Shown here: positions 1 through 11,485 of the stretch, one piece after another
Position numbering within the stretch: the stretch's first letter is position 1
Layout of the letters: each line of letters opens with the position of its first letter
Assembly (NCBI GenBank): GCA_046758765.1
Contig: JBHIAW010000002.1
Span: forward strand, 1-48,840
DNA from: a bacterium
GTDB taxonomy: Bacteria > Zhuqueibacterota > Zhuqueibacteria > Oceanimicrobiales > Oceanimicrobiaceae
Reading direction: 5' to 3'
DNA length: 48,840 nt
The notes under the pieces: generated by a model
What the model saw: only the letters and a program-made list of their open reading frames with translations
Database searches by the model: none
What the model was told of the DNA's origin: nothing
Program-made: the position numbers and the translations under genes

Positions 1-22
1 TACAATTTTGCTTAATTTTCCC

Positions 23-50
23 TTGCATTTTTAGAAAAAGATTGTAATTT
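23..50 (+). promoter_or_regulatory. candidate sigma70-type promoter (TTGCAT-16 nt-TAATTT) upstream of the selenoprotein ORF
   Basis: TTGCAT at 23-28 and TAATTT at 45-50, about 57 nt upstream of ATG 107. Motif match only. Confidence 0.3.
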
Positions 51-106
51 AAGAAATTATCAGATTTCAGTAAATACATGTTACCCACTAAGAAAGTAAG
101 GCAGAT

Positions 107-328
107 ATGTTAGTGACCATTGAATACTGCTTGGTTTGAGACTATTTTCCCAAAGCCTCCAGTTTGAAGGCAGAGTTAGAAAAACAGTTCTCCGATATCA
201 ATGTAGAACTTATCGAAGGTAGTGGTGGAGTTTTTGAAGTGGTGAAAGATGGCGAGTTGATCTTCTCTAAAAAGCAACTTGGGCGATTCCCCGAGCACGA
301 AGAAATCGTTGAGAAATTGAAAACTTAG
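107..328 (+). CDS. SelW/Rdx-family thioredoxin-fold selenoprotein (73 aa, in-frame TGA 137-139 read as Sec)
   Basis: One frame runs from ATG 107 to TAG 326-328, broken only by TGA 137-139. Translation: MLVTIEYCLV[U]DYFPKASSLKAELEKQFSDINVELIEGSGGVFEVVKDGELIFSKKQLGRFPEHEEIVEKLKT. It carries the CxxU redox motif, GGxFEV and GRFPE, which are typical of Rdx (SelW/T/H) proteins. It is absent from the ORF track because of the TGA. Confidence 0.8.
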
Positions 329-352
329 AAAGTTGTTACTCTTGGCAGGTAT

Positions 353-585
353 GAGATTGCTCCGGCAAAAAACCCTTCTCAGAACAGCCCTCGGTTGTCA
401 TGCTGGAAGCATCTTTTTACGAATGCAAAATAAAAGCTCATCGAAGCATGGATTTACCGCTTTCAAAAAAGATTCTTGCAGAATGACAAACCGGAGAGAG
501 CTGTTCTTCCTGAGAGAATGGTGCAAAAGTGCCATGCGGCGCTCGAAATGATGGCTATAATGTATCGTTTTCGTTCAAGAACTAA
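353..585. repeat. composite palindromic (MITE/REP-like) repeat nest
   Basis: The outer parts (GAGATTGCTCCGGCAAAAAAC... and ...TCGTTTTCGTTCAAGAAC) match the right half of the element at 7097-7233. An inner hairpin pairs GTCATGCTGGAAGCATCTTTTT (397-418) with AAAAAAGATTCTTGCAGAATGAC (465-487). ORF 333-551 lies entirely inside it. Confidence 0.7.
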
Positions 586-820
586 TTGAGAAGCAAATCC
601 CACTTATCAAGTGCAAACACTATTATACCGCGCAACACAGAACCAGCCTTTTTGCATTGACTACAATGCTCGTTTTTTCCTACTGACTTTGCATTTAGGT
701 GAGGAAACTTCTCAAGTACTATAGGATGAATCCTCACCCATTAATTAATCTTGACAATTTCAATGGAACTGAATATATTTGCGTAGGATTACTATTACGA
801 ATTTTAGTCCAGCGATAGTC

Positions 821-2638
821 ATGAGAAACTGCAACGAGGTTCCTGTGCACATTTTTGAGCAAAAAAATGGTGTCTTAAAAGCATGGATGCTGGTTACCGT
901 TATCGGTCTGAGCTGCGCTCCCGGCTGCGGCAACGAGGGAGGAAAAGCGCCAGCCCGCCCATTCTCGACCAACACCTCTCAACCAATCCTCTCAGATGTA
1001 ACAACGGAGGTGGGAATCGACTTTGTGTATGACAATGGCATGTCGGGTAAGCTGTATTTCGTAGAGATGATGGGGGGTGGCGGCGCCATGTTCGATTATG
1101 ACAATGATGGTGACCTTGACCTCTATATGGTTCAAGGTCATTTTCTGGACCCGGCATGGCCTGGGCCGGATGCCTCAACACCAAGAGACCGACTTTATCG
1201 TAATGACCTTGAAGTACGGCCTGATGGAAGCCGTACGTTACACTTCACCGATGTAACGGAAGCGAGTCGGTTGCGCGCTACCGGCTATGGTATGGGCGTA
1301 ACCACAGGCGATTATAACAACGATGGCTGGGTAGACCTCTACGTCCTCAACTGGGGGGACAACCAGTTGTGGCGTAATAATGGCGATGGGACGTTTACCG
1401 ATGTGACTCAGGAAAGTGGCACCAACGATCCCGGTTGGTCTACGGCTGCGGCCTTTCTGGACTTCGACCTCGATGGATGGTTGGACCTGATGATTGTCAA
1501 CTATGACGCTTATACCTTTGCAAATGATCACCCCTGTTACTCGCCAATTTCAGGAGGTCGGGATTATTGTCATCCCAGTGCTTACCCACCGGCGCCAGAC
1601 CGTTTGCTGCGCAATCGCGGAGATGGCACCTTCGAAAATGTTACGTTTCCAACCAGGGTCGCACGAGCGTATGGGCCTGGGCTAGGAATTACTGTTGCAG
1701 ACTTCAACGGGGATGGCTGGCTTGACATGTATGTGGCGAATGATCAGAGGGAAAACCAGCTTTGGATAAACCATGAGGGACGCTATTTCCAAAACCAGGC
1801 CGTCATTTCAGGCACGGCGGTCAACGGCGCTGGGGCTCCAGAAGCCAGCATGGGCGTGAACGCGGCTGATTTCGACGGTGATGGTGATGAGGACCTCTTT
1901 ATGACCCATCTCACACGGGAAACCAACACGCTTTACATTAACTATGGCCATGCTAACTTTGGCATGGCGCTGTTTCAGGATCACAGCCGGACGTCAGGGT
2001 TGGGGGCGGCAAGTTTGCCGTACACCGGCTTTGGTACAGTCGATTTTGATTATGACAACGACGGTTGGCTAGACTTGTTCATCGCCAATGGTCATGTGGG
2101 AATCATCCAAGAACTAGCCCAACAAGGCGACCCCTTTCCTTTGAAACAGGTTAATTTGCTTTTTCGCAACCTGGGAGAGGGGCGTTTTAAAATGATAAGC
2201 TCCACAGACGATCCAGTCTTTGGGCTGGCCGAGGTCAGCCGGGGAACGGCCAGGGGCGATCTGGATAATGATGGCGACACAGACATTTTGCTGTTCAATA
2301 ACAACGGACCTGCACGGCTACTACGTAATGAAGTGGGACAGGAACAAATGTGGCTGGGGTTACGCCTGGTAGGTGCAGCAACCCAGCGAGATATGTTTGG
2401 AACCCGGGTAGCCCTGGTGCGCGCCGATGGCTCCACGTTGTGGCGTCGAGTGCATGTCGATGGCAGTTACTGTTCAGCCCATGACCCGCGGGTCTTGTTT
2501 GGATTAGGTACCGCAAAAGAATACGAAGTGGTACGGATCTACTGGCCAGGAGGCGGGATTGAAGAGTGGAGAGAGCTGGACGTAGATCAGTATCATACCT
2601 TGATTCAGGGAACGGGAACACAGATTGATTTGCCATGA
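821..2638 (+). CDS. CRTAC1-family FG-GAP/VCBS repeat protein with C-terminal ASPIC/UnbV domain, probable secreted or lipoprotein
   Basis: Seven Ca-binding-type repeats are present (DYDNDGDLDLY, DYNNDGWVDLY, DFDLDGWLDLM, DFNGDGWLDMY, DFDGDGDEDLF, DYDNDGWLDLF, DLDNDGDTDIL), followed by a UnbV_ASPIC-like C-terminus (GTRVALVRADGS...YCSAHDPRVLFGLG). The N-terminus has VIGLSC (lipobox-like). The start is uncertain: TTG 779, ATG 821 or ATG 887. Confidence 0.85.
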   Translation: MRNCNEVPVHIFEQKNGVLKAWMLVTVIGLSCAPGCGNEGGKAPARPFSTNTSQPILSDVTTEVGIDFVYDNGMSGKLYFVEMMGGGGAMFDYDNDGDLDLYMVQGHFLDPAWPGPDASTPRDRLYRNDLEVRPDGSRTLHFTDVTEASRLRATGYGMGVTTGDYNNDGWVDLYVLNWGDNQLWRNNGDGTFTDVTQESGTNDPGWSTAAAFLDFDLDGWLDLMIVNYDAYTFANDHPCYSPISGGRDYCHPSAYPPAPDRLLRNRGDGTFENVTFPTRVARAYGPGLGITVADFNGDGWLDMYVANDQRENQLWINHEGRYFQNQAVISGTAVNGAGAPEASMGVNAADFDGDGDEDLFMTHLTRETNTLYINYGHANFGMALFQDHSRTSGLGAASLPYTGFGTVDFDYDNDGWLDLFIANGHVGIIQELAQQGDPFPLKQVNLLFRNLGEGRFKMISSTDDPVFGLAEVSRGTARGDLDNDGDTDILLFNNNGPARLLRNEVGQEQMWLGLRLVGAATQRDMFGTRVALVRADGSTLWRRVHVDGSYCSAHDPRVLFGLGTAKEYEVVRIYWPGGGIEEWRELDVDQYHTLIQGTGTQIDLP

Positions 2639-4251
2639 ACGTTAGTTCAGGATTCACAAGGTCGCTTGCCAAGCTATCCATGGGGCTCGTTTTTCTAGTG
2701 GGTGGAATAGCTTGTCGTCAGGCAGAACCTGAAGCCTTGCAACGGGTTGAATTTCCGGACCTCTCTCTGTTGGAGGATGCGGTAGAGCAGCAGCTCAAAT
2801 CGGAATATGCCAAACTGAGCACTCTGGAGAGTGAGAGACAGGTTGAGTCAACGGCGTTAGGGCGTGCCTACGGCAGGATGGGGCAACTCTTTCTCGCATA
2901 TGATATTGTCCAAGCAGCAGAAGCTGCTCTGCGCAATGCCAAAATCTTGATGCCTACGGAAGTGCGCTGGCCTTACTATCTCGGGTATCTATACTTCACG
3001 CTTGGTCAGTTGGAACGAGCCGCGGCCGAGTATGAACAGGCTGGCAAGCTAAAGCCCAAAGAGGCAACTATATGGGTACGACTGGGCGAAACCTTTCAGC
3101 AAATGGGGCGCGACGCTGAAGCGAAACCGCTGTTAGAAAAAGCCGTTCGCGTAGATGCCACTTCAGCAAAAGCACACTTCCTCTTAGGTCAGATAGCTAA
3201 TGACGCCAGAAAATTCAAAACAGCCATTAAACATTATAGGGCTGCCTTGAAGCTGCAACCCTCGGCCACAAGCATATATTATGCCCTCGGGATCGCATAT
3301 CGGAATCTGGGAAGGAATATGGAGGATATTAAGCGCAGCCTGCAATACTTGCACAAACGAGGCAACGTGAAAGTGCGGCTGAAAGATCCTTTCTTGGACG
3401 AGGTTAGAAAGCTTAAGAGAGGTTCAAAGTCATTGTCCTCCAGGGGAAGCAGATTCATGATGCAGGGGCGATTACGAGAAGCTGAAATCGCTTTTGAACA
3501 GGTAATAGCGGCAGACTCCAATGATGTCCTCGCCCACCTGAATCTGGGTTCGGTACGCGCCCGTTTGGGCAAGACAGATAAAGCTATTGCGGCCCTTGAG
3601 CGTGCGGTTCAACTGGACCCTTCGCAAACCGTAGCCCTTATGCTGCTGGGGCAGCTTTATGCTAAACAGGGAGAAACCAAAACCGCCGAGCATTACTATC
3701 GGGCGGCTTTGCAGGTAGATGCACGCAATGATGAGGCCCACCTGGGCTTGGCCACATTATTACGGCGTACAGGACGTTGCCAGGAGGCTATGCCGCACTT
3801 CGAGAAGGTTCTGGAGATTACCCCTGGACAGGTTCAGGCTCACCTATATAGGGCGGTTTGTCATATACAGCTAGGCGAGTATGTCAAGGCGCGTACCTTA
3901 CTTGAAGCTGCTCACGACGTCTTTCCACACTATCGCAGCATACGCGATGCGTTGGTACGATTATTGGCGGCCAGCCCGGAAGCCGAGGTACGCGATGGGA
4001 AGCTTGCCCTGACGCTCGCCGAAAAGCCTGTGGCTGAGTCAGACCATGTCGAAACCACCGAAGCCTTGGCCATGGCCTATGCCGAGTTGGGGCGCTTTGC
4101 TGAGGCCATCCATTGGCAGGAGGCCGCTATTGAGACCGCGCGTACACAAAGTAAGACAGACTATCTGGATCATCTCAAGCACAATCTGCTGCGCTACCAG
4201 CAAGGTAAACCGAGCCGTACCCCATGGGCCCGGTTTTACGATGAAAAGTGA
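2635..4251 (+). CDS. TPR-repeat protein (signal peptide or lipoprotein-like N-terminus)
   Basis: ATGA start/stop overlap with the upstream gene. It contains many 34-aa TPR-like units (e.g. AHFLLGQIANDARKFKTAIKHYRAALKLQP, AHLNLGSVRARLGKTDKAIAALERAVQLDP). A TPR partner next to CRTAC1-type genes is a common arrangement. Confidence 0.85.
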   Translation: MNVSSGFTRSLAKLSMGLVFLVGGIACRQAEPEALQRVEFPDLSLLEDAVEQQLKSEYAKLSTLESERQVESTALGRAYGRMGQLFLAYDIVQAAEAALRNAKILMPTEVRWPYYLGYLYFTLGQLERAAAEYEQAGKLKPKEATIWVRLGETFQQMGRDAEAKPLLEKAVRVDATSAKAHFLLGQIANDARKFKTAIKHYRAALKLQPSATSIYYALGIAYRNLGRNMEDIKRSLQYLHKRGNVKVRLKDPFLDEVRKLKRGSKSLSSRGSRFMMQGRLREAEIAFEQVIAADSNDVLAHLNLGSVRARLGKTDKAIAALERAVQLDPSQTVALMLLGQLYAKQGETKTAEHYYRAALQVDARNDEAHLGLATLLRRTGRCQEAMPHFEKVLEITPGQVQAHLYRAVCHIQLGEYVKARTLLEAAHDVFPHYRSIRDALVRLLAASPEAEVRDGKLALTLAEKPVAESDHVETTEALAMAYAELGRFAEAIHWQEAAIETARTQSKTDYLDHLKHNLLRYQQGKPSRTPWARFYDEK

Positions 4252-4326
4252 TGAAGCAGCAGTTGCGATGTGTTTCAACCCGGTATCCCACGTAAGCGCT
4301 TTCAACGGGAGCTTCTTGAACCATCA

Positions 4327-4671
4327 CGTAACTATTCAGGCTGCCCGGTCATTCCGTAGGAATTTCCATGTCAGGCTTGACACCCGATAATGATGAAAAT
4401 AATGTTAAGCAATTTTCCTCCATGTCATTCCGTAGGAATCTTCCCGCCCTTAGCATACAATTCAGGGAGGATGCCTCTGGCATGACAGTTTAGGTGTTTT
4501 GCTGCATCTCACTAAAAAGGTGATGCTTTCAAACAACGAATCACTTAATCTTAAATTAGGTCACATTTATTTTCGTGGTAATCTTTGTAAATTTTAGCAC
4601 TTAGTAAACAAGGTTCGTTCGGACGTTGATTCAACAAAGACTCTTCCAGAATCACAGCCTGAATAGTTACC
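4327..4671 (-). repeat. copy A of the ~125-bp hairpin element, inverted relative to copies B and C, carrying a ~215-bp nested insertion
   Basis: The left arm 4327-4363 (CGTAACTATTCAGGCTGCCCGGTCATTCCGTAGGAAT) and the right part ~4581-4671 (ATCTTTGTAAATTTTAGCACTTAGTAAACAAGGTTCGTTCGGACGTTGATTCAACAAAGA...CAGCCTGAATAGTTAC) are colinear with the reverse complement of 45401-45524. The intervening DNA contains a further GTCATTCCGTAGGAATCTTCCC / GGGAGGATGCCTCTGGCATGAC hairpin. Confidence 0.8.
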
Positions 4672-4726
4672 GATATACTTGTTATGCGGAATAACATTAA
4701 TCATCTTTTTGTTGACAATCTTATAT

Positions 4727-4742
4727 ATGCATATACGTGCAT
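4727..4742. promoter_or_regulatory. inverted repeat ATGCA-N6-TGCAT (possible operator) just downstream of a TTGACA hexamer (4712-4717)
   Basis: ATGCATATACGTGCAT overlaps the perfect palindrome ATATGCATAT, 35 nt upstream of the flavoprotein ATG. No regulator gene is present in the locus. Confidence 0.25.
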
Positions 4743-4776
4743 GTTTAAATATCTACGATCATCAGGGAGTACTTAA

Positions 4777-6030
4777 ATGAAGAGAATTGCCATCATCGGA
4801 GCTGGGCCAATAGGACTTGAAACCGCGTTATATGCTTCAAAGCTCGGTTATGAGTTCGAAATTTTTGAAAAGGGTGAGATCGGATTCAATATTTTGAATT
4901 GGGGGCATGTAACATTATTCTCACCGTGGAGCATGAATCACTCCTCATTAGGTGTTGCATTGCTTGAGAAATATAGACCCGAGTGGCTTGAGCCAGCTCA
5001 GGAAGATTATCTAACCGGTAAAGAGTACGTTGAAACGTATCTATGGCCATTGAGTACGTTACCTCAGCTAAATGAAAACATTCATACTGGTACCTGTGTG
5101 GAGTTCATTGGTAGAGAAGGGATTCTTAAAGGGGATTTAGTTGGTGGTTCCGATCGCGCTGCTTATCCATTTCGGATTCTTACTGTTAACTCCCAAGGGG
5201 TAGAAAACTGTTACTCTGCAGACATCGTCATTGACGCCTCCGGAGTTTATGGCAATCACAACTGGTTAGGGGATGGGGGAATTCCAGCTTTGGGAGAAAA
5301 GGAAAGCGAGCCTCACATTGGATATGGTTTGGAAGATATTTGCGGTGCAGACCGATCAAAATACGCTGGCAAAAAAACCTTGTTGGTTGGGACTGGTTAC
5401 TCGGCAGCTACCGCGATTTCGGATTTTCACAAATTGATACACGAAGAACCGCACACCTCTGTGCTTTGGGCAATACGTGAAAGCCGCCAATCGCCAATCC
5501 CTCTTATCGAAGAGGACCCCCTTCCAAATCGTGCAAAATTAACCGAAATTGCCAACACCATTACAAGAAATGGTCAGCCTCAAGTAGAATTCAGGAATAA
5601 TACCATCATAGATTCGATTCAATATTTAGAGCATGGAGAAAAATTTGTCGTAGGATTAAGAACCAACGGATTATTAGACAAAGTAGAAGTCGATCGCGTG
5701 ATTGCCAATGTGGGCTACGGTCCGGACAATTCCGTATACCGGGAACTGCAGGTGCATGAATGCTATGCCACCAGGGGGCCGATGAAACTAGCGGCTGCTC
5801 TTTTAGGAGGTTCTGCTACCGATTGTTTAGCTCAAACAAGTCACGGGTCTGACACACTGAAAAACCCAGAACCCAATTTTTACATCATCGGAAACAAGAG
5901 CTATGGCCGTAACTCAACATTCTTGATCCATATTGGCCTGAGTCAAATTCAAGAAGTTTTTACATTGATTACCGGTGATGCAAAACTCAATCTTTACCAA
6001 GTCACTCAAAAGGAGAAGAAAACATCTTGA
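4777..6030 (+). CDS. FAD/NAD(P)-binding oxidoreductase (two dinucleotide-binding folds), specific function unknown
   Basis: N-terminal GxGxxG (IAIIGAGPIGLETALYA), a second fold (LLVGTGYSAATAISDF), and SD AGGGAG upstream of ATG 4777. No redox CxxC pair is visible. Confidence 0.75.
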   Translation: MKRIAIIGAGPIGLETALYASKLGYEFEIFEKGEIGFNILNWGHVTLFSPWSMNHSSLGVALLEKYRPEWLEPAQEDYLTGKEYVETYLWPLSTLPQLNENIHTGTCVEFIGREGILKGDLVGGSDRAAYPFRILTVNSQGVENCYSADIVIDASGVYGNHNWLGDGGIPALGEKESEPHIGYGLEDICGADRSKYAGKKTLLVGTGYSAATAISDFHKLIHEEPHTSVLWAIRESRQSPIPLIEEDPLPNRAKLTEIANTITRNGQPQVEFRNNTIIDSIQYLEHGEKFVVGLRTNGLLDKVEVDRVIANVGYGPDNSVYRELQVHECYATRGPMKLAAALLGGSATDCLAQTSHGSDTLKNPEPNFYIIGNKSYGRNSTFLIHIGLSQIQEVFTLITGDAKLNLYQVTQKEKKTS

Positions 6031-7016
6031 GTTTCGAGAATCTGAAAATTCGTGAGAACGACCTAACTGTAGAGGCATTTGAAAATCTCGAAGTCCAAGA
6101 ATCCTTAGTTCAGTTCTCACGAAAACCACCAGCGAGCGATGTGCCGTGGGTGCCTCTGCACAGTTTGGATGCCCTGTGGTTCCAAGTAGGAGGGACTATT
6201 TGCAATTTGTGGTGCACTCACTGCTTCATTAGCTGCAGTCCGCAAAATCATAAATTTGGATTTATGGAGCGCCCCACAGTACGCACATACTTAGAAGAGT
6301 CCAAAAAATTTGGAGTTAAAGAATACTATTTCACCGGCGGGGAACCGTTTATGAACAAAGAGCTGCTTGGCATTTTAGAAGATACACTGGAATTAGGTCC
6401 GGCCACGGTCCTTACCAACGGGATATTGATTCTTGAGCGCGTGGCCAAACGACTTAGGGATATCGTGGAACAAACCATTTACACTTTAGAAATCCGGGTC
6501 AGTATCGATGGATTTGCCGGAGAAAGCAACGATAAAATACGAGGTGAAGGAAGCTTCCGAAAGGCTCTGAATGGCATCAAAAATTTGGTTGATCATGGAT
6601 TTTTGCCAATAATAACCGCCGCACAAACTTGGGAAGATTCCGAGACGGAAAAGGTGTTTCAAGGATTTAGAAAAGCCTTATTCGATATGGGGTATTCCCG
6701 ACCAAGAATCAAAATTATCCCCCCACTGCGAATTGGCAGAGAAAAAGTCCGCAGTCGGGGATACGACAAATATGAATACGTGACTAAAGAGATGATGGCT
6801 AACTACGATGATACTCTGCTTCAGTGCAGTCTCAGCCGAATGGTCACGGATAAAGGCGTATACGTATGCCCAATCTTGATTGACTCTCCCGAAGCCAAAG
6901 TTGGTGACTCACTGGCAGAGTCATTTACACCATATCCTCTGAAGCATCAGGCGTGTTATACCTGTTACCTATCGGGAGCTATTTGTCATAATTTTTCTGG
7001 AACTGAAAGTAGTTAA
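6027..7016 (+). CDS. radical-SAM enzyme, candidate ArsS/ArsL-type partner of ArsM
   Basis: CX3CX2C motif CNLWCTHC, a GGEP-type SAM contact (FTGGEPFM), and a C-terminal Cys group (C...CPILIDSP...CYTC...C) suggesting an auxiliary cluster. The TTG start overlaps the upstream stop (TTGA). Assignment to ArsS versus ArsL cannot be made by eye. Confidence 0.7.
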   Translation: MSFENLKIRENDLTVEAFENLEVQESLVQFSRKPPASDVPWVPLHSLDALWFQVGGTICNLWCTHCFISCSPQNHKFGFMERPTVRTYLEESKKFGVKEYYFTGGEPFMNKELLGILEDTLELGPATVLTNGILILERVAKRLRDIVEQTIYTLEIRVSIDGFAGESNDKIRGEGSFRKALNGIKNLVDHGFLPIITAAQTWEDSETEKVFQGFRKALFDMGYSRPRIKIIPPLRIGREKVRSRGYDKYEYVTKEMMANYDDTLLQCSLSRMVTDKGVYVCPILIDSPEAKVGDSLAESFTPYPLKHQACYTCYLSGAICHNFSGTESS

Positions 7017-7096
7017 AAATTTACCACAGATGAACACCTATTGTCAAGGAAATAAAATCAGAATCTATGGATGGTAATGAAACGTAACTAACGAGT

Positions 7097-7233
7097 GTTT
7101 GAACGAAAACACCATTTTTACTGTCATTGCGAGCGCTTCTCAGCGAAGCAATCTCCCAATTAGGTAGGTGTGAGATTGCTTCGGCAAAAAACGCCTCGCA
7201 ATGACGGTTAGGATCTATAGTTTTCGTTCAAAC
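7097..7233. repeat. palindromic hairpin element between the radical-SAM gene and arsM
   Basis: Outer inverted repeat GTTTGAACGAAAAC (7097-7110) / GTTTTCGTTCAAAC (7220-7233). Inner arms GTCATTGCGAGCGCTTCTCAGCGAAGCAATCTC / GAGATTGCTTCGGCAAAAAACGCCTCGCAATGAC. Confidence 0.8.
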
Positions 7234-7263
7234 AATAACTAATATAATAGGTATAAAGTAGGC

Positions 7264-8460
7264 ATGAATAGCAACACTAAGAAGTTAGGAACAAACAATT
7301 CAACAATGATTAGCGCTGAGAAAGCAGTACGGGAGCGGTATACAAAAGGTTCCCAACAGCAGGAGGTTGCTCTATGCTGTGCCGCCGTAGACTATGATAA
7401 GAAATATTTAGAAATCATACCCCAAGAAATCATTGAACGTGATTACGGTTGCGGCGATCCTTCTAAATACGTAAAACCGGGGGAGACGGTATTAGACCTA
7501 GGTAGTGGAACAGGCAAAATATGCTACATCATTTCGCAAATGGTAGGAGCAGAAGGCCGGGTTATTGGTGTGGATATGAATCAGGAAATGCTGTCCTTAG
7601 CAAGAAAGTACCAGAAAGAAGTAGGTGACAAAATAGGCTATCACAACGTGGAATTTCGCCGCGGGAAAATTCAGGATTTGAAGTTGGATTTAGACCGAGC
7701 CGACCTTTATTTGAGAGAAAATCCTATACGCAGCGCTTCTGAATTCCTACGTTATGAAGAATTCCTTGAGGAACAGAGAAAAAATCAGCCTCTCATTCCC
7801 GATGATTCCATTGACTTAGTGGTCTCAAACTGTGTTTTAAATTTGGTAAAAGACGAAGACAAAAAGCAGCTTTTTAGCGAAATTTATCGACTGTTAAGAA
7901 AGGGGGGTCGAGTCGCTATTTCCGATATTGTTGCAGACGAAGATGTGCCAACCCATTTAAAGAATGACCCTGATCTTTGGAGCGGCTGCATTTCTGGTGC
8001 TTTACGTGAAGACGAGTTTCTCAAAGCCTTTGCAGATGCGGGTTTCTACGGCATTCAAATCGAAAAGTGGAACGATGAACCCTGGCAAACCGTAGAAGGC
8101 ATTGAATTTCGCTCTGTGACCATAACTGCCTACAAAGGAAAAGAGGGCCCTTGCCTGGAACGAAATCAGGCCGTGATCTACCGCGGCCCTTGGAAAGCAG
8201 TCATCGATGACGATGGCCATACCCTCTATCGGGGAGAACGAATGGCTGTGTGCAACAAAACCTTTCGCATTTATACCAAGGAGCCATATTCTGCTGACAT
8301 AATTCCAGTGGAGCCTTATGAGAAGATTCCTCTGGAACAAGCCCAGAGTTTTGCCTGCAATAAAAATGCCCGTCGCCATCCGAGAGAAACTAAAGGGCTG
8401 GATTACAACGTAACCGAACTTAGCGATGGCGCGTCCTGTGGTCCGGAGGGTTGTTGTTAA
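7264..8460 (+). CDS. arsM: arsenite S-adenosylmethionine methyltransferase (ArsM/AS3MT family)
   Basis: SAM-binding VLDLGSGTG plus the four ArsM-defining Cys contexts: LCCAAVD, YGCGDP, VSNCVLNL and WSGCISGA. It has a long C-terminal domain ending in the Cys-rich SCGPEGCC. Confidence 0.85.
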   Translation: MNSNTKKLGTNNSTMISAEKAVRERYTKGSQQQEVALCCAAVDYDKKYLEIIPQEIIERDYGCGDPSKYVKPGETVLDLGSGTGKICYIISQMVGAEGRVIGVDMNQEMLSLARKYQKEVGDKIGYHNVEFRRGKIQDLKLDLDRADLYLRENPIRSASEFLRYEEFLEEQRKNQPLIPDDSIDLVVSNCVLNLVKDEDKKQLFSEIYRLLRKGGRVAISDIVADEDVPTHLKNDPDLWSGCISGALREDEFLKAFADAGFYGIQIEKWNDEPWQTVEGIEFRSVTITAYKGKEGPCLERNQAVIYRGPWKAVIDDDGHTLYRGERMAVCNKTFRIYTKEPYSADIIPVEPYEKIPLEQAQSFACNKNARRHPRETKGLDYNVTELSDGASCGPEGCC

Positions 8461-8500
8461 ATCGTTTAGCCGGCAAGCATTTGTAGAAGAGTAGGATTAA

Positions 8501-9295
8501 ATGCAAGAAACCGATTGTGAAAAAATTGCTGTATTTGGTGGTGTTTACAACAACTATTTAGCTTTAGAAGCCCTGGTAACCGATGCCAAAAAAAGGGGCG
8601 CAGAAAAGCTTTTCTGCCTAGGAGATTTGGGCGCTTTTGGACCTAATCCTGACAAAGTGTTCCCAATTCTATTGGAACATAATATTGCTGTGGTTCAAGG
8701 GAACTACGACCATTCCATCGGCAACAACCTAAGTGACTGCCAGTGCGGTTACACAGACTCTCGGGATAATCATTTTGCCCAGATCAGTTACGACTACACC
8801 TTCACGAAAACCAGCCCAGACTTCAGAAAATGGCAGAAACAACTTCCTTCAGAAATTCGATTTACTTTTGGAGGTAAGCGGGTGCTGCTCTGTCATGGCT
8901 CCCCTCGAAAGACCAACGAATTTCTCTGGGAATCCACTACCCCGACCCATTTCTTACAAAAACTTTTTCACGATCATGAAGCTGATATTATTCTGAGTAC
9001 GCACACCGGCATTCATTGGAAAAGAGATGTGGGGGAGGGCAAGCTCTTCGCCAATGTGGGTGTCATCGGTCGTCCTGCAAATGATGGTCAGACCAATGCG
9101 TGGTATGCCATACTTTCCGCCAACGGACATGTAGAAATCGAATTTATCCCGTTGGAATATGATTACCTGCGACTAGCTGAAGAAATGCGAGAAGAGAATC
9201 TTCCCCAAGAGTTTATCGACACCATTTTGACTGGCTGGTGGACAACCTGTCTGGAGATTTTACCAGCCAAAGAGCGCCTGCGTGGGAAATTCTAA
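8501..9295 (+). CDS. calcineurin-fold metallophosphoesterase with non-canonical metal-binding motifs
   Basis: Motif order is recognisable: AVFGGVYNN (in place of DxH), LGDLGAFGP, QGNYDHS (in place of GNHD/E), LCHGSP and STHTGIH. A CQCGY insertion follows motif III. Confidence 0.7.
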   Translation: MQETDCEKIAVFGGVYNNYLALEALVTDAKKRGAEKLFCLGDLGAFGPNPDKVFPILLEHNIAVVQGNYDHSIGNNLSDCQCGYTDSRDNHFAQISYDYTFTKTSPDFRKWQKQLPSEIRFTFGGKRVLLCHGSPRKTNEFLWESTTPTHFLQKLFHDHEADIILSTHTGIHWKRDVGEGKLFANVGVIGRPANDGQTNAWYAILSANGHVEIEFIPLEYDYLRLAEEMREENLPQEFIDTILTGWWTTCLEILPAKERLRGKF

Positions 9296-9428
9296 CTAAG
9301 GACAGAGGTAAAACGATGTGTTAATTCCGTCCGGGATTATAGGAATTCAGACCACGCAAGTGAAATCCGCAACCGGCGGTAACACCTCAGTCTTCGTCAG
9401 GAAAATCTCGTTCCCCAGTTAACAGAGG

Positions 9429-9574
9429 GTGTGAAAAGTACAATCGAGACGTTCCATAGCTCAGCAACACCTTGATGTCATTCTGGAAGAATCTTTTTAA
9501 TAAACAGGACCTTACGTCCAATCAAAAAAGATTCCTCCTGAATGACAAGCACCGCAGAGTCTGACTTTTCACAC
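9429..9574. repeat. palindromic hairpin element in a long structured intergenic region
   Basis: Outer inverted repeat GTGTGAAAAGT / ACTTTTCACAC. Inner arms GTCATTCTGGAAGAATCTTTTT / AAAAAGATTCCTCCTGAATGAC. Same core family as 397-487 and the 125-bp element. Confidence 0.7.
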
Positions 9575-9689
9575 AGTCTGTGAACGAGTACGGCTGGTTA
9601 CCTCACCGTAGCTGAGGTTTTACAACCGGCGTATTTTACTAATTGAATCTATCCAGGATGAAGACCCCTCTAATTCCCGATTTAGAATT

Positions 9690-9908
9690 TTACGCGACCT
9701 GATAAATAAGAGGTCGATAACGCGGTTCAGGAATTGGCTTTTCGTTTGCCCGCGCTGCTTCAAACCAGGCTTGTTTTGCTTTCAGCACCTCACTCAAGGC
9801 TTTCTCTGGAGTTTCTCCAAAAGCAGAATAATGTTTTAAGTCTGGTATATCCGCAATATATCCATTATCCTCTTCACTATGAAACACATTGATATGATAA
9901 TCTTTCAT
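9690..9908 (-). CDS. hicB: HicB-family antitoxin (short, 72 aa)
   Basis: MKDYHINVFHSEEDNGYIADIPDLKHYSAFGETPEKALSEVLKAKQAWFEAA matches the typical HicB N-terminal RNase-H-like fold signature (Y.....ED.G.Y.A..PDL.....G.T.EEA). Confidence 0.75.
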   Translation of the reverse strand: MKDYHINVFHSEEDNGYIADIPDLKHYSAFGETPEKALSEVLKAKQAWFEAARANEKPIPEPRYRPLIYQVA

Positions 9909-10010
9909 TCTTCATCCTCCATCTGAAGATTACTGCACATGCCGTTACTTCTGAAAATCGAATGTTCTTTGATCCAGAGATTAGTTTTTTAACAATTTTC
10001 GTCTTTTCAC
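9905..10010 (-). pseudogene. probable decayed hicA toxin remnant (frameshifted and shortened)
   Basis: GTG at 10010 opens VKRRKLLKN*. One frame over, ...NLWIKEHSIFRSNGMCSNLQMEDEE* ends in an ATGA overlap with hicB. KRRKLLK..L and (G)xHxIFRxxxG resemble the HicA N-terminus and its GSHxxF core, but about half the protein is missing. Confidence 0.35.
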
Positions 10011-10260: not shown

Positions 10261-10455
10261 ATGGACAATGTGGATTTAGTTATAAAAAAGTTAGAGAAAA
10301 TAGAAAACGAAATTAATGCTTTGAAATTTTCATTAAAACAAAGTCAAAAGCCTTTGAAGCTAGGTGGTATTTGGACAAGAATCGATATTACCGAAAATGA
10401 TATAGAAGAAGCAAAGAGATCGTTATTTAAAAGTAAACTGACCAAGGATATATAA
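10261..10455 (+). CDS. putative antitoxin of the PIN-domain toxin (64 aa, helical)
   Basis: It sits 2 nt upstream of the PIN gene with a strong SD. The C-terminal LGGIWTRIDITENDIEEAKRSLF motif is a type seen in small partners of PIN toxins. Assignment rests mainly on position. Confidence 0.55.
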   Translation: MDNVDLVIKKLEKIENEINALKFSLKQSQKPLKLGGIWTRIDITENDIEEAKRSLFKSKLTKDI

Positions 10456-10457
10456 GA

Positions 10458-10850
10458 ATGCCCCATTATACCATTGATGCACATCCATTGATTTGGCATT
10501 TTACTAATTCCACCAAATTGAGTCCAAAAGCTAAAGAGTGTATCGAAGAAATAGAACAGGGTAAATCTGCTGGAATTATCCCATCAATTGTCATGGCTGA
10601 ATCATTCTATGTAGCAAGTAAAAAAAGAATCAATTTTGATTATAACGATTTACTTGACAAAATAATTTTAAGTCCAAATTATTTACTTTATCCGTTGGAC
10701 GCAGATATTTTATTTAAGTTAGGCCAAATGCATCCAATCACAGAATTACATGATCAAATTATTGTCGCTACCGCATTAATAACAGAAAGTAAATTAATTA
10801 CTAAAGATAAAGATATTGAAAATTCAAAAGTAGTCGATGTCATTTGGTAA
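10458..10850 (+). CDS. vapC: PIN-domain ribonuclease toxin (VapC-like)
   Basis: The conserved acidic positions are in the expected order: IDAHPLIW (D), VMAESF (E), LHDQIIVATA (D) and ITKDKDI (D). Size is 130 aa. The cassette is very AT-rich. Confidence 0.75.
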   Translation: MPHYTIDAHPLIWHFTNSTKLSPKAKECIEEIEQGKSAGIIPSIVMAESFYVASKKRINFDYNDLLDKIILSPNYLLYPLDADILFKLGQMHPITELHDQIIVATALITESKLITKDKDIENSKVVDVIW

Positions 10851-10865
10851 AACACTAATACTCTG

Positions 10866-11078
10866 ATGTATGAATCCAAAATTCCGGGGAGCAGCCTTCA
10901 GGCGGTGATCGATTTTTACAAGAAGGATGTGGATCGCACACTGATCCGGGAGAATCTCAAACTCACAGTGGAGGAACGCCTGCTCAATCTGCAAAATTTC
11001 CTGAAGTTCACCAGCGAACTTCAAAAAGCCGGCCAGAAGGTTCGCCAACGGGTCGTGACCAAGCGAGTCCATAGATGA
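10866..11078 (+). CDS. small helical protein, partner of the downstream nucleotidyltransferase (possible antitoxin or adaptor)
   Basis: ATGA overlap with the next gene. The motif LIRENLKLTVEERLLNLQNF recurs in small proteins encoded upstream of minimal nucleotidyltransferases. No function is known. Confidence 0.5.
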   Translation: MYESKIPGSSLQAVIDFYKKDVDRTLIRENLKLTVEERLLNLQNFLKFTSELQKAGQKVRQRVVTKRVHR

Positions 11079-11485
11079 TCATGGATTATCAGAAGCTCAT
11101 TCCCATTCTGGTTAAGGGTCAGGTAAAGTTTATTATGATTGGCGGTGCAGCCGCCATTGTACACGGTTCTGCACGTGTGACCTTCGATCTGGATGTAGTT
11201 TATGCTCGCGATTCGGACAATATTGAGCGGCTAGTACAAACGCTAAAACCTTATTTCCCGTATCTGCGAGATGCACCCCCCGGACTGCCTTTCGTATTCG
11301 ACCAAGACACCGTGGAGAAAGGTTTGAATTTCACCTTGACAACTAAACTCGGGAGTTTAGACCTGCTTGGAGAAGTTGTTGGCGGAGGAACTTACGAAGA
11401 CTTGCTACCCTATTCTCAGCAAATCGAAGTATTGTACAACTTAGGTCAAGTTGTTTCACGGTGTTACAATGATATAGTCATTTGA
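11075..11485 (+). CDS. minimal nucleotidyltransferase-fold protein (MNT-like), probably C-terminally truncated or replaced
   Basis: IGGAAAIVHGSARVTFDLDVVY shows the G[GS]...hG and DxD signature of the Pol-beta NTase fold. The recognisable sequence ends near ...YEDLLPYSQQIEV, and composition switches to AT-rich at about 11440. Confidence 0.55.
   Translation: MIMDYQKLIPILVKGQVKFIMIGGAAAIVHGSARVTFDLDVVYARDSDNIERLVQTLKPYFPYLRDAPPGLPFVFDQDTVEKGLNFTLTTKLGSLDLLGEVVGGGTYEDLLPYSQQIEVLYNLGQVVSRCYNDIVI

Follow-up and report, generated by a model that had tools for sequence, protein, structure and literature searches.

A compact arsenic-linked gene cluster with an uncharacterised radical-SAM family and a half-dismantled Car1-like metallophosphoesterase

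The cluster and its main features

Investigating a 48,840-nt stretch of a bacterial contig (JBHIAW010000002.1; the whole stretch is hereafter called the window), we analysed a cluster of four plus-strand genes (positions 4777-9295), which encode a flavoprotein, a radical-SAM protein (rSAM), an ArsM-type methyltransferase and a metallophosphoesterase (MPE). On balance, these four genes probably form the compact version of a widespread, undescribed arsenic-transformation module, which would combine reduction, methylation, the formation of a further carbon-arsenic (C-As) bond and electron supply. The conserved, near-obligate partner of the rSAM is the phosphoesterase, arsM being an accessory gene, and the link of the rSAM-MPE pair to arsenic is strong, based on gene fusions, on clusters from the KSB1 group and on neighbouring TIGR04282, TIGR04283 and MTAP-like genes. 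The cluster is of the known ArsM plus rSAM type, but it carries an uncharacterised rSAM family and a new, half-dismantled Car1-type sub-family of phosphoesterases. We regard it as novel because a 2025 review names only ArsS (adenosylation) and ArsL (aminocarboxypropylation) as rSAM enzymes forming C-As bonds (PMC12159101), because the literature searched gave no description of a linkage between an rSAM and a Car1-like MPE, and because no model of NCBIfam release 20 was passed by the rSAM or the MPE of the window. The features of the cluster are as follows.

4777..6030, plus strand: flavoprotein, 417 aa; Pfam Pyr_redox_3/2; GAGPIG motif and a second, GxGxSA Rossmann motif at residues 205-210
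6027..7016, plus strand: radical-SAM enzyme, 329 aa; PF04055 Radical_SAM with 55 bits; CNLWCTHC motif
7095..7235, plus strand: near-perfect hairpin element, 141 nt, in the spacer between the rSAM gene and arsM; recognised by its fold energy
7264..8460, plus strand: ArsM-type As(III) SAM methyltransferase of the long form, 398 aa; Pfam Methyltransf_31/25/11; ArsM cysteine contexts
8501..9295, plus strand: Cys-rich, half-degenerate metallophosphoesterase, 264 aa; PF12850 Metallophos_2 with 43 bits (cut-off 27)

An earlier reading of this DNA, made from its letters and open reading frames (ORFs) and called the original prediction here, had named the four ORFs with their coordinates, a set of motifs, a TTGA junction and a 40-nt spacer, and all of these are present. 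The TTG start codon of the rSAM gene overlaps the TGA stop codon of the flavoprotein gene (cTTGAg at 6027-6030) and is preceded by a Shine-Dalgarno sequence (AAGGAG) about 11 nt further 5'; the spacers measure 247 nt between the rSAM gene and arsM and 40 nt between arsM and the phosphoesterase gene.

Gene neighbourhoods and fusion proteins

Relatives were collected by scanning one genome per GTDB species with tblastn (E <= 1e-3), which gave at least 530 candidate rSAM relatives; the best 80 rSAM loci of these (50-82% identity) were analysed, and the neighbour counts given below refer to these 80, the neighbour genes being counted by tblastn with the window proteins. The loci stem from KSB1, Calditrichia, Ignavibacteria, Gemmatimonadota, Planctomycetota, Acidobacteriota, Verrucomicrobiota and others. 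It should be noted that ORF calling in this bulk analysis was naive. Single fetched loci are designated L### and fusion proteins P####, and all family cut-offs are those of NCBIfam release 20.

An MPE gene lies directly 3' of the rSAM gene in 66 of the 80 loci and a truncated copy in one more, which amounts to 67 of the 74 informative loci (91%); six loci are cut too short to judge, and seven with enough flanking DNA have no MPE nearby. Both genes frequently overlap by 4-8 nt. The other two genes of the window cluster are found less often, arsM in about 14/80 loci, in four gene orders and in several phyla, and a flavoprotein homologue in about 31/80, mostly directly 5' of the rSAM gene. DUF2064 occurs in 14/80 loci, ArsS and ArsL in none of the 80. 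The original prediction had treated the phosphoesterase as an addition to an rSAM-arsM unit; these counts reverse the order, and the co-occurrence of all four genes in other genomes, which it had proposed to look for, holds for the rSAM and the MPE and much less often for the flavoprotein and arsM. On a Roseomonas plasmid, the rSAM-MPE pairing persists even at about 30% identity, in an operon with TIGR04282, DUF547, rSAM, an rSAM homologue, a PhnDEC-like transporter and an MPE homologue.

A profile search with the MPE alignment recovered three fusion architectures:

P0486, 673 aa: MPE::ArsM; the ArsM half passes NF038099 ("arsenosugar biosynthesis ArsM") with 465 bits (cut-off 400); four cluster members, on contigs of up to 331 kb
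P0450: MPE::ArsM; the ArsM half passes PRK11873 with 280 bits (cut-off 263); one contig
P0372, 565 aa: MPE::rSAM; the rSAM half is Rv1681-like (267 bits); five members on several contigs; L099:6878-8575

The operon of P0372 (L099) encodes an MTAP-like nucleoside phosphorylase, TIGR04282 (182 bits, cut-off 134), TIGR04283 (229 bits, cut-off 182), an MFS transporter, the MPE::rSAM fusion and a flavoprotein, with a mycoredoxin-like glutaredoxin (Grx) and a MerA-like reductase located divergently. The fused rSAM and that of the window are 31% identical over the core. The earlier suggestion that the additional genes process an adenosyl or ribosyl arsenical fits this one related operon; an MTAP-like gene was seen solely beside this actinobacterial fusion and near none of the rSAM-MPE pairs in the 80 loci.

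Two clusters from KSB1 genomes place the rSAM side by side with ArsS. L094 contains TIGR04169, ArsS (427 bits), PHO4 and ArsM, and L093 contains the new rSAM, MPE, PHO4, ArsM, TIGR04169 (133 bits, cut-off 120) and a YpdA-like flavoprotein. The ArsM of either cluster is 67% identical to the window ArsM, and the two are orthologous clusters, with ArsS in L094 and the new rSAM plus MPE in L093. In a neighbour-joining tree, calculated without support values, the ArsS-linked ArsM is nested within the new-rSAM-linked ArsMs. The same ArsM clade occurs on a Cupriavidus megaplasmid in a full ArsS cluster (PHO4, ArsM, AhpD-like, ArsS, MerA-like, DedA, TIGR04283, DUF2064). TIGR04169 is found in KSB1 relatives, and L092 has a true TIGR04283 gene between the flavoprotein and rSAM genes. 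That the locus is arsenic-transforming and looks biosynthetic, as originally proposed, is supported by the fusions, the displacement of ArsS and the accessory genes, which also tie the rSAM itself to arsenic.

Compared with the ArsS clusters of arsenosugar type, the new clusters thus share the ArsM orthogroup (67% identity between ArsS-linked and new-rSAM-linked members) and the position of the rSAM gene next to PHO4-ArsM, and relatives of the window share TIGR04169, TIGR04282, TIGR04283, PHO4 and a flavoprotein. On the other hand, the ArsS clusters examined have no Car1-like MPE, their flavoprotein is MerA-like and not YpdA/TrxR-like as in the new-rSAM clusters, and the window, with four genes only, lacks the glycosyltransferase-like genes of the ArsS clusters (tblastn). 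No homologue of PHO4, TIGR04169, DUF2064 or TIGR04283 was detected by tblastn in the 48.8-kb window (E <= 1e-3).

Transport genes were repeatedly seen near the pair. In 13 loci (L012, L014-L018, L020, L021, L030, L032 and L059 among Ignavibacteria/Bacteroidota), an SSS-like membrane protein of 450-460 aa, with weak SSF/TIGR00813 matches only, is encoded directly 5' of rSAM-MPE, and a phosphate-selective porin O/P commonly one gene further 5'; the two may form a dedicated uptake or export system. The MPE::ArsM gene of P0486 (L097:8001-10022) stands back-to-back with a PhnD-type (phosphonate-binding) ABC importer, and a PhnD-type transporter is located between rSAM and MPE on the Roseomonas plasmid, too (L089:6878-9116), which hints that arsenate or an arsonate, e.g. 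methylarsonate, is taken up. In Thalassoglobus, neighbouring genes for a 3-dehydroquinate synthase and for Gfo/Idh/MocA brought up a role in cyclitol or sugar-phosphate metabolism; this was judged coincidental, the synthase passing the housekeeping AroB model.

The metallophosphoesterase

The label "atypical", given to the phosphoesterase in the original prediction, is justified, three motifs being altered: D-x-H of motif I is changed to GG-V-Y-N-N, GNH to GNY, and GHTH of motif V to THTG. All ligands specific to metal site 1 (Asp and His of motif I, second His of motif V) are replaced, and those of site 2 (D42, N68, H132, H168) are retained. The AlphaFold2 (AF2) model has a mean pLDDT of 87, and Foldseek retrieved SapH (3qfn/3qfm, TM 0.77-0.81), 3rqz, PH1004 (2gju) and PF1291 (1nnw). 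Four cysteines (C39, C80, C82, C250) are invariant across 66 MPE family members, with C80/C82 conserved in 66/66 and 40/40 sequences, and the invariant Cys loop is the region of lowest confidence in the AF2 model. Because of the invariant cysteines and the lost site-1 ligands, a thiol-based arsenic role of the MPE had suggested itself before the Car1 literature was taken into account.

PMC12124457 cites Shen et al. 2024 (Mol Microbiol 122:201) as the primary source on Car1. In a full-length alignment, the window MPE shares 33% identity (E 7e-44) with the Orf1-type MPE of a P. bifermentans plasmid operon (ArsR-MPE-Acr3-ArsM), and the C74-G-C76 of the latter aligns with C80-Q-C82 of the former. 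In PMC12124457, Car1 of Rufibacter tibetensis is given as a metallophosphoesterase-family As(V) reductase, for which Cys74 and Cys76 are essential; the Paraclostridium Orf1, from the operon arsR-orf1-acr3-arsM, is about 40% identical to Car1 (PMC12124457). Genes for Car1-like MPEs were also observed on Hymenobacteraceae plasmids, in ArsR-ArsN2-ArsM-MPE-Acr3 and related operons. The two branches of the family are distinguished as follows.

Classical Car1-like branch: motif I SD(I/V)H.N; motif V GHTH; no C-terminal tail
rSAM-/ArsM-linked sub-family: motif I GG.Y.N; motif V (T/G)H.G; C-terminal tail GWWTTC

The window MPE and the Car1/Orf1 proteins have in common the calcineurin-like fold, a Cys-x-Cys after motif III, a Cys before the GD motif, the GNYD motif and a gene next to arsM. 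They differ in that SD-x-H and GHTH of the Car1 type are GG-x-Y and (T/G)H-x-G in the window sub-family, where the site-1 ligands are gone and the GWWTTC tail is added, the identity to the classical branch amounting to 30-34%. The partners differ as well, being ArsR and Acr3 for the Car1 type and the rSAM, sometimes as a fusion, for the window sub-family. Judged by its sequence, the MPE is likely to be a divergent Car1-type arsenate reductase or an arsenical-handling protein, and its apparent Car1-type membership, together with the alignment of C74/C76 with C80/C82, makes it very probable that the cluster carries its own As(V) reductase. The earlier statement that the locus lacks resistance genes has to be modified in this respect: no ArsR, ArsB, thioredoxin (Trx)-type ArsC, ArsP, ArsQ, ArsL or ArsN1 was detected by tblastn (E <= 1e-3) in the 48.8-kb window, where Acr3, ArsH and Grx-type ArsC were not searched for, but "no arsC" is misleading as the MPE appears to be of Car1 type.

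The radical-SAM protein

Two identities, ArsS and ArsL, had been considered for the 329-aa rSAM in the original prediction, and it is neither, belonging to a third family, which is unrelated to ArsL and has only the radical-SAM core in common with ArsS. TIGR04167 (ArsS) matches it with 56.8 bits (cut-off 300) and in the N-terminal core only, compared with 427 and 466 bits for true ArsS proteins; hhalign against a true ArsS covers residues 36-192 only (probability 96% over 152 columns), and Pfam finds PF04055 and Fer4_12 only, without DUF3641 (PF12345) and without a SPASM match. The bona fide ArsL used for comparison is encoded by a Pseudomonas amygdali plasmid, in a cluster annotated as arsQLM (L086:3824-5098); against this protein the rSAM scores 17 bits in BLASTP (E 0.76). 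ArsL proteins have 424-428 aa, with CX3CX2C near residue 194 (194-201) and an RCCLKC tail; in the window rSAM, the motif lies at residues 59-66, the C-terminal tail is QACYTCYLSGAICHN, and RCCLKC is missing. The arsM neighbour, the CX3CX2C motif and the weak core likeness to ArsS are what a divergent ArsS or ArsL orthologue would offer, but at the level of family membership this identity is refuted by the scores and missing domains for ArsS, and by the E value, protein length, motif position and missing tail for ArsL, so that we find it hardly credible. With the arsinothricin arsQML cluster, the window shares an rSAM gene adjoining a long-form ArsM, for which NF040538 is the best ArsM match, but it has neither arsQ nor arsN1, and its rSAM has no detectable ArsL similarity.

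The nearest named family is Rv1681 (MoeX; NF049973), both for the window rSAM, of which it is the best NCBIfam match (96.3 bits, residues 58-214), and for the fused rSAM (267 bits), either score remaining below the cut-off of 380. The two differ in their C-termini: the window family has a twitch-like C-x9-G-x3-C...CxxCx6C arrangement, which is not shared by ArsS, and the fused Rv1681-like form a short tail ending with C-A-I. If the systems are homologous, M. tuberculosis Rv1681 may be mislabelled as "molybdopterin biosynthesis MoeX", and its family may be arsenic-linked. Invariant or nearly so are C59/C63/C66, C70, C267-x9-G277-x3-C281 and C310xxC313x6C320, giving five to six cysteines beyond the core motif in a twitch-like, Cys-rich C-terminus; the auxiliary-cluster pattern of SPASM/twitch enzymes reads C-x9-15-G-x4-C...CxxCx5Cx3C. 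The AF2 model (mean pLDDT 78.6) has SkfB, BlsE, SuiB, anSME, viperin and MoaA as top Foldseek matches, EpeE being among the matches as well, and its fold places the rSAM, as modelled, in the twitch/SPASM-like class, in a family without a name.

The methyltransferase

The assignment of the methyltransferase to the ArsM type, made originally from its cysteine contexts, is supported. LCCAAVD, YGCGDP, SNCVLNL, WSGCISGA and the tail SCGPEGCC are present along with the SAM motif VLDLGSGTG, and C38/C39, C63, C190 and C242 are invariant in 125/125 homologues. The best PDB match is CmArsM (4fr0/4kw7, 4e-35), with YGCG, SNCV and GC(I/L)(S/G)GA matched and equivalents of its C44, C72, C174 and C224 present. 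Among the NCBIfam models, NF040538 (arsinothricin ArsM) gives 383.6 bits (cut-off 500), PRK11873 206 (cut-off 263) and NF038099 (arsenosugar ArsM) 137 (cut-off 400), and every other strong match is an ArsM family, too. By these scores, the protein reads as a putative ArsM sub-family not yet modelled; with its counterpart in the true arsQLM cluster it shares 39% identity.

At residues 297, 330, 365 and 392 (GPCLE, AVCNK, FACNK, SCGPE), the window ArsM has four further, C-terminal cysteines, which are invariant in 123-124 of 125 clade homologues and absent from the ArsM of arsinothricin type; a metal, an Fe-S cluster or arsenic could be bound there. The pork-derived S. aureus plasmid pSA159 (L087:4690-7059) encodes a further methyltransferase, which shares 51% identity with the window ArsM. 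Annotated merely as "methyltransferase domain-containing protein", this enzyme is part of an ArsR-ArsP-ArsM unit bordered by recombinase and Mu-transposase genes, with a classical arsRBC operon a few kb upstream.

The flavoprotein

Pfam Pyr_redox_3/2 covers only the N-terminal part of the flavoprotein. In a profile search against PDB, the best, albeit weak, matches are TrxR-like 7a76 (1e-12) and YpdA/Bdr 7a7b (5e-10), and TIGR04018 (YpdA/Bdr) reaches 38 bits (cut-off 340) over the N-terminal Rossmann fold only. Among its cysteines, C350 (DCL) is invariant, and C329 reaches 90% conservation. In about 24 loci, the gene lies at about -1.2 kb from the rSAM gene, directly 5' of it and frequently overlapping it, and the suggestion that the flavoprotein is a dedicated reductase is viable in view of this position. 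From its sequence, it is probably a TrxR/YpdA(Bdr)/FMO-like, NAD(P)H-dependent reductase serving a thiol relay or the rSAM cluster.

A proposed pathway and its alternatives

Family relationships, conserved residues, gene linkage and fusions are what the analysis establishes, and from these we infer all of the following reaction steps. The Car1-like MPE, with the catalytic C80/C82 pair intact, one of its two metal sites stripped of ligands and the GWWTTC tail gained, would reduce As(V) or a pentavalent organoarsenical and pass on the trivalent form, as homology and fusions suggest; in relatives, As(V) might be imported by the cluster-encoded PHO4, PhnD-type or porin systems. The trivalent arsenic would then be methylated by ArsM, in line with its family membership and conserved catalytic cysteines. 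In place of ArsS of the sister clusters, the rSAM would form a further C-As bond on a trivalent arsenical, the likeliest reaction being a 5'-deoxyadenosyl transfer leading to ribosyl (arsenosugar-like) products; this chemistry is proposed because of the ArsS displacement and the MTAP-like, TIGR04282 and TIGR04283 neighbours of the fused form. The flavoprotein, translationally coupled to the rSAM, would draw on NAD(P)H either to regenerate the thiols of the reductase and of ArsM from their Cys-Cys disulfides, with a TIGR04169 AhpD-like or Grx-like protein acting as carrier in relatives, or to reduce the rSAM cluster. A bolder version, which we think somewhat doubtful, is that the 329-aa rSAM founds a third family of As-alkylating rSAM enzymes, with a structure unlike those of ArsS and ArsL, and is complexed with a Car1-derived, thiol-only "ex-phosphoesterase" without hydrolysis; this partner would both reduce arsenate and donate As(III), and the product would be an organoarsenical undescribed from bacteria.

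Several points weigh against an arsenic-transformation module with a C-As bond-forming rSAM. In 38 of the 80 loci, rSAM and phosphoesterase stand alone, with no further arsenic-linked gene within 10 kb, and the exchange of ArsS for rSAM plus MPE is known from few loci and could reflect two pathways, one of methylation and adenosylation and another of reduction and methylation. TIGR04169, TIGR04282 and TIGR04283 owe their "arsenosugar biosynthesis" names to co-occurrence with ArsS, the nearest structural matches of the rSAM are largely peptide- or protein-modifying enzymes (Foldseek), and the window ArsM stays under every curated NCBIfam ArsM cut-off. The Car1 biochemistry, cited second-hand, comes from a branch of about 30% identity with both metal sites, so that with the M1 ligands lost the chemistry here may differ, and the activities of all four proteins and their close relatives are predicted from sequence.

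The rSAM might form the C-As bond by chemistry other than adenosylation (transfer of a 3-amino-3-carboxypropyl or other alkyl group, or use of a phosphorylated or nucleotide acceptor), with a product that is neither an arsenosugar nor arsinothricin. In favour of this, the window ArsM and its clade are nearest to NF040538 and not to the arsenosugar ArsM model, the likeness between rSAM and ArsS is limited to the core and ends before the different, twitch-like and Cys-rich C-terminus, and TIGR04282, TIGR04283 and MTAP-like genes are missing from most loci. We nonetheless consider it unlikely: the same ArsM orthogroup is also paired with true ArsS, the rSAM resembles ArsL neither overall nor in the RCCLKC tail, and the only fully "readable" operon (L099) has the MTAP-like, TIGR04282 and TIGR04283 genes together, fitting adenosyl-to-ribosyl chemistry. 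These three genes beside the fusion imply an adenosylated small molecule, which no ArsS is there to produce, and so also bear on a decidedly unlikely alternative, in which the rSAM would be a maturase of the MPE (cf. anSME and sulfatases), modifying for example the DCQCGY loop or the GWWTTC tail; of the two proteins, the modified MPE alone would then act on arsenic, and the cluster would only reduce and methylate, with no radical C-As bond. A maturase would agree with the protein- and peptide-modifying enzymes SkfB, SuiB, anSME and EpeE among the structural matches, with the tight adjacency and common overlap of both genes, with the low model confidence of the invariant Cys loop and with the fact that only the M1-less, Cys-tailed sub-family is rSAM-linked, classical Car1-like genes standing in ars operons without an rSAM neighbour. 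It is at odds with MPE::ArsM fusions of the GG.Y.N sub-type having no rSAM within 8 kb, with MPE::rSAM being unusual as an enzyme-substrate fusion, and with the compact core of about 295 aa of the rSAM, in which neither an RRE-like nor any other recognition domain can be made out.

That the rSAM-MPE pair belongs to phosphorus metabolism (phospho-, phosphono- or nucleotide scavenging under phosphate limitation), with arsM as a bystander detoxifying co-imported arsenate, is very unlikely, since the MPE is fused to a bona fide ArsM in two independent architectures and retains the Car1 Cys pair despite having lost half of its hydrolytic metal site, and since the arsenosugar-type accessory genes TIGR04169, TIGR04282 and TIGR04283 recur in the loci. 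Phosphate-selective porin O/P (six loci), PHO4/PitA-type permeases, PhoU, VTC, PhnD-type ABC importers and the SSS-like transporter (13 loci) among the neighbours would suit such a role, as would the closeness of the MPE fold to the Ap4A hydrolase/phosphodiesterase SapH and the 38 loci without a nearby arsenic gene; however, true ArsS and arsinothricin clusters have phosphate transporters, too, for arsenate import.

Implications

Returning to the arsenic-transformation module, the data are pointing to rSAM plus MPE as a third, widespread bacterial way to C-As compounds. The rSAM is a candidate for the third C-As rSAM family; its partner, the Car1-like reductase, is defined, and it is distributed over many, mostly uncultured phyla. 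If it is an analogue of ArsS, makers of arsenosugar-type compounds would extend past cyanobacteria and Proteobacteria into lineages of anoxic sediments; if its chemistry differs, a new organoarsenical would be defined. Should a third family prove true, it would range over KSB1, Calditrichota, Ignavibacteria, Gemmatimonadota, Planctomycetota, Acidobacteriota and Actinobacteria and be a major route, overlooked so far, by which arsenic is organified in sediments and soils. Many annotations as "metallophosphoesterase family protein" would be reassigned to arsenic redox chemistry, and for enzyme evolution, the MPE may represent a phosphoesterase en route to a pure thiol reductase.

Surroundings of the cluster and other elements of the window

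The hairpin in the spacer between the rSAM gene and arsM (7095-7235) has an RNA fold energy of -65.6 kcal/mol (z = -10.3 against shuffled sequences). It is present in a single copy in the window and was not found in any fetched relative, and in the closest relative (L001) the spacer has just 104 nt. The element looks like a small palindromic insertion; it may be an insertion of the type of a miniature inverted-repeat transposable element (MITE) or a repetitive extragenic palindrome (REP), or a structure processing or stabilising the transcript. Rfam at gathering thresholds found no riboswitch and no other RNA in the whole window, and a promoter and terminator scan gave no sites in excess over shuffled sequence. 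Selenocysteine variants of the four proteins were not seen in the 80 loci, a lone in-frame stop (L013) being a true stop.

Directly 5' of the cluster lie two genes with overlapping stop and start codons, 779-2638 for an FG-GAP/ASPIC-UnbV repeat protein and 2635-4251 for a multi-TPR protein; no linkage of these genes to the cluster was seen among relatives. The G+C content is 43-52% in the left 10 kb of the window (1-10000), which include the cluster, and 36-43% in 10001-48840, and beyond about 12.9 kb almost every long ORF is located on the minus strand; this shift in composition and strand may mark the boundary of an island or of a recombination. Just 3' of the cluster, a small ORF (64 aa, 10261-10455) is followed by a PIN-domain protein (10458-10850, PF01850, 8e-10), resembling a VapBC-like toxin-antitoxin pair, after which comes an ORF with weak likeness to DUF6036 nucleotidyltransferases (11075-11485).

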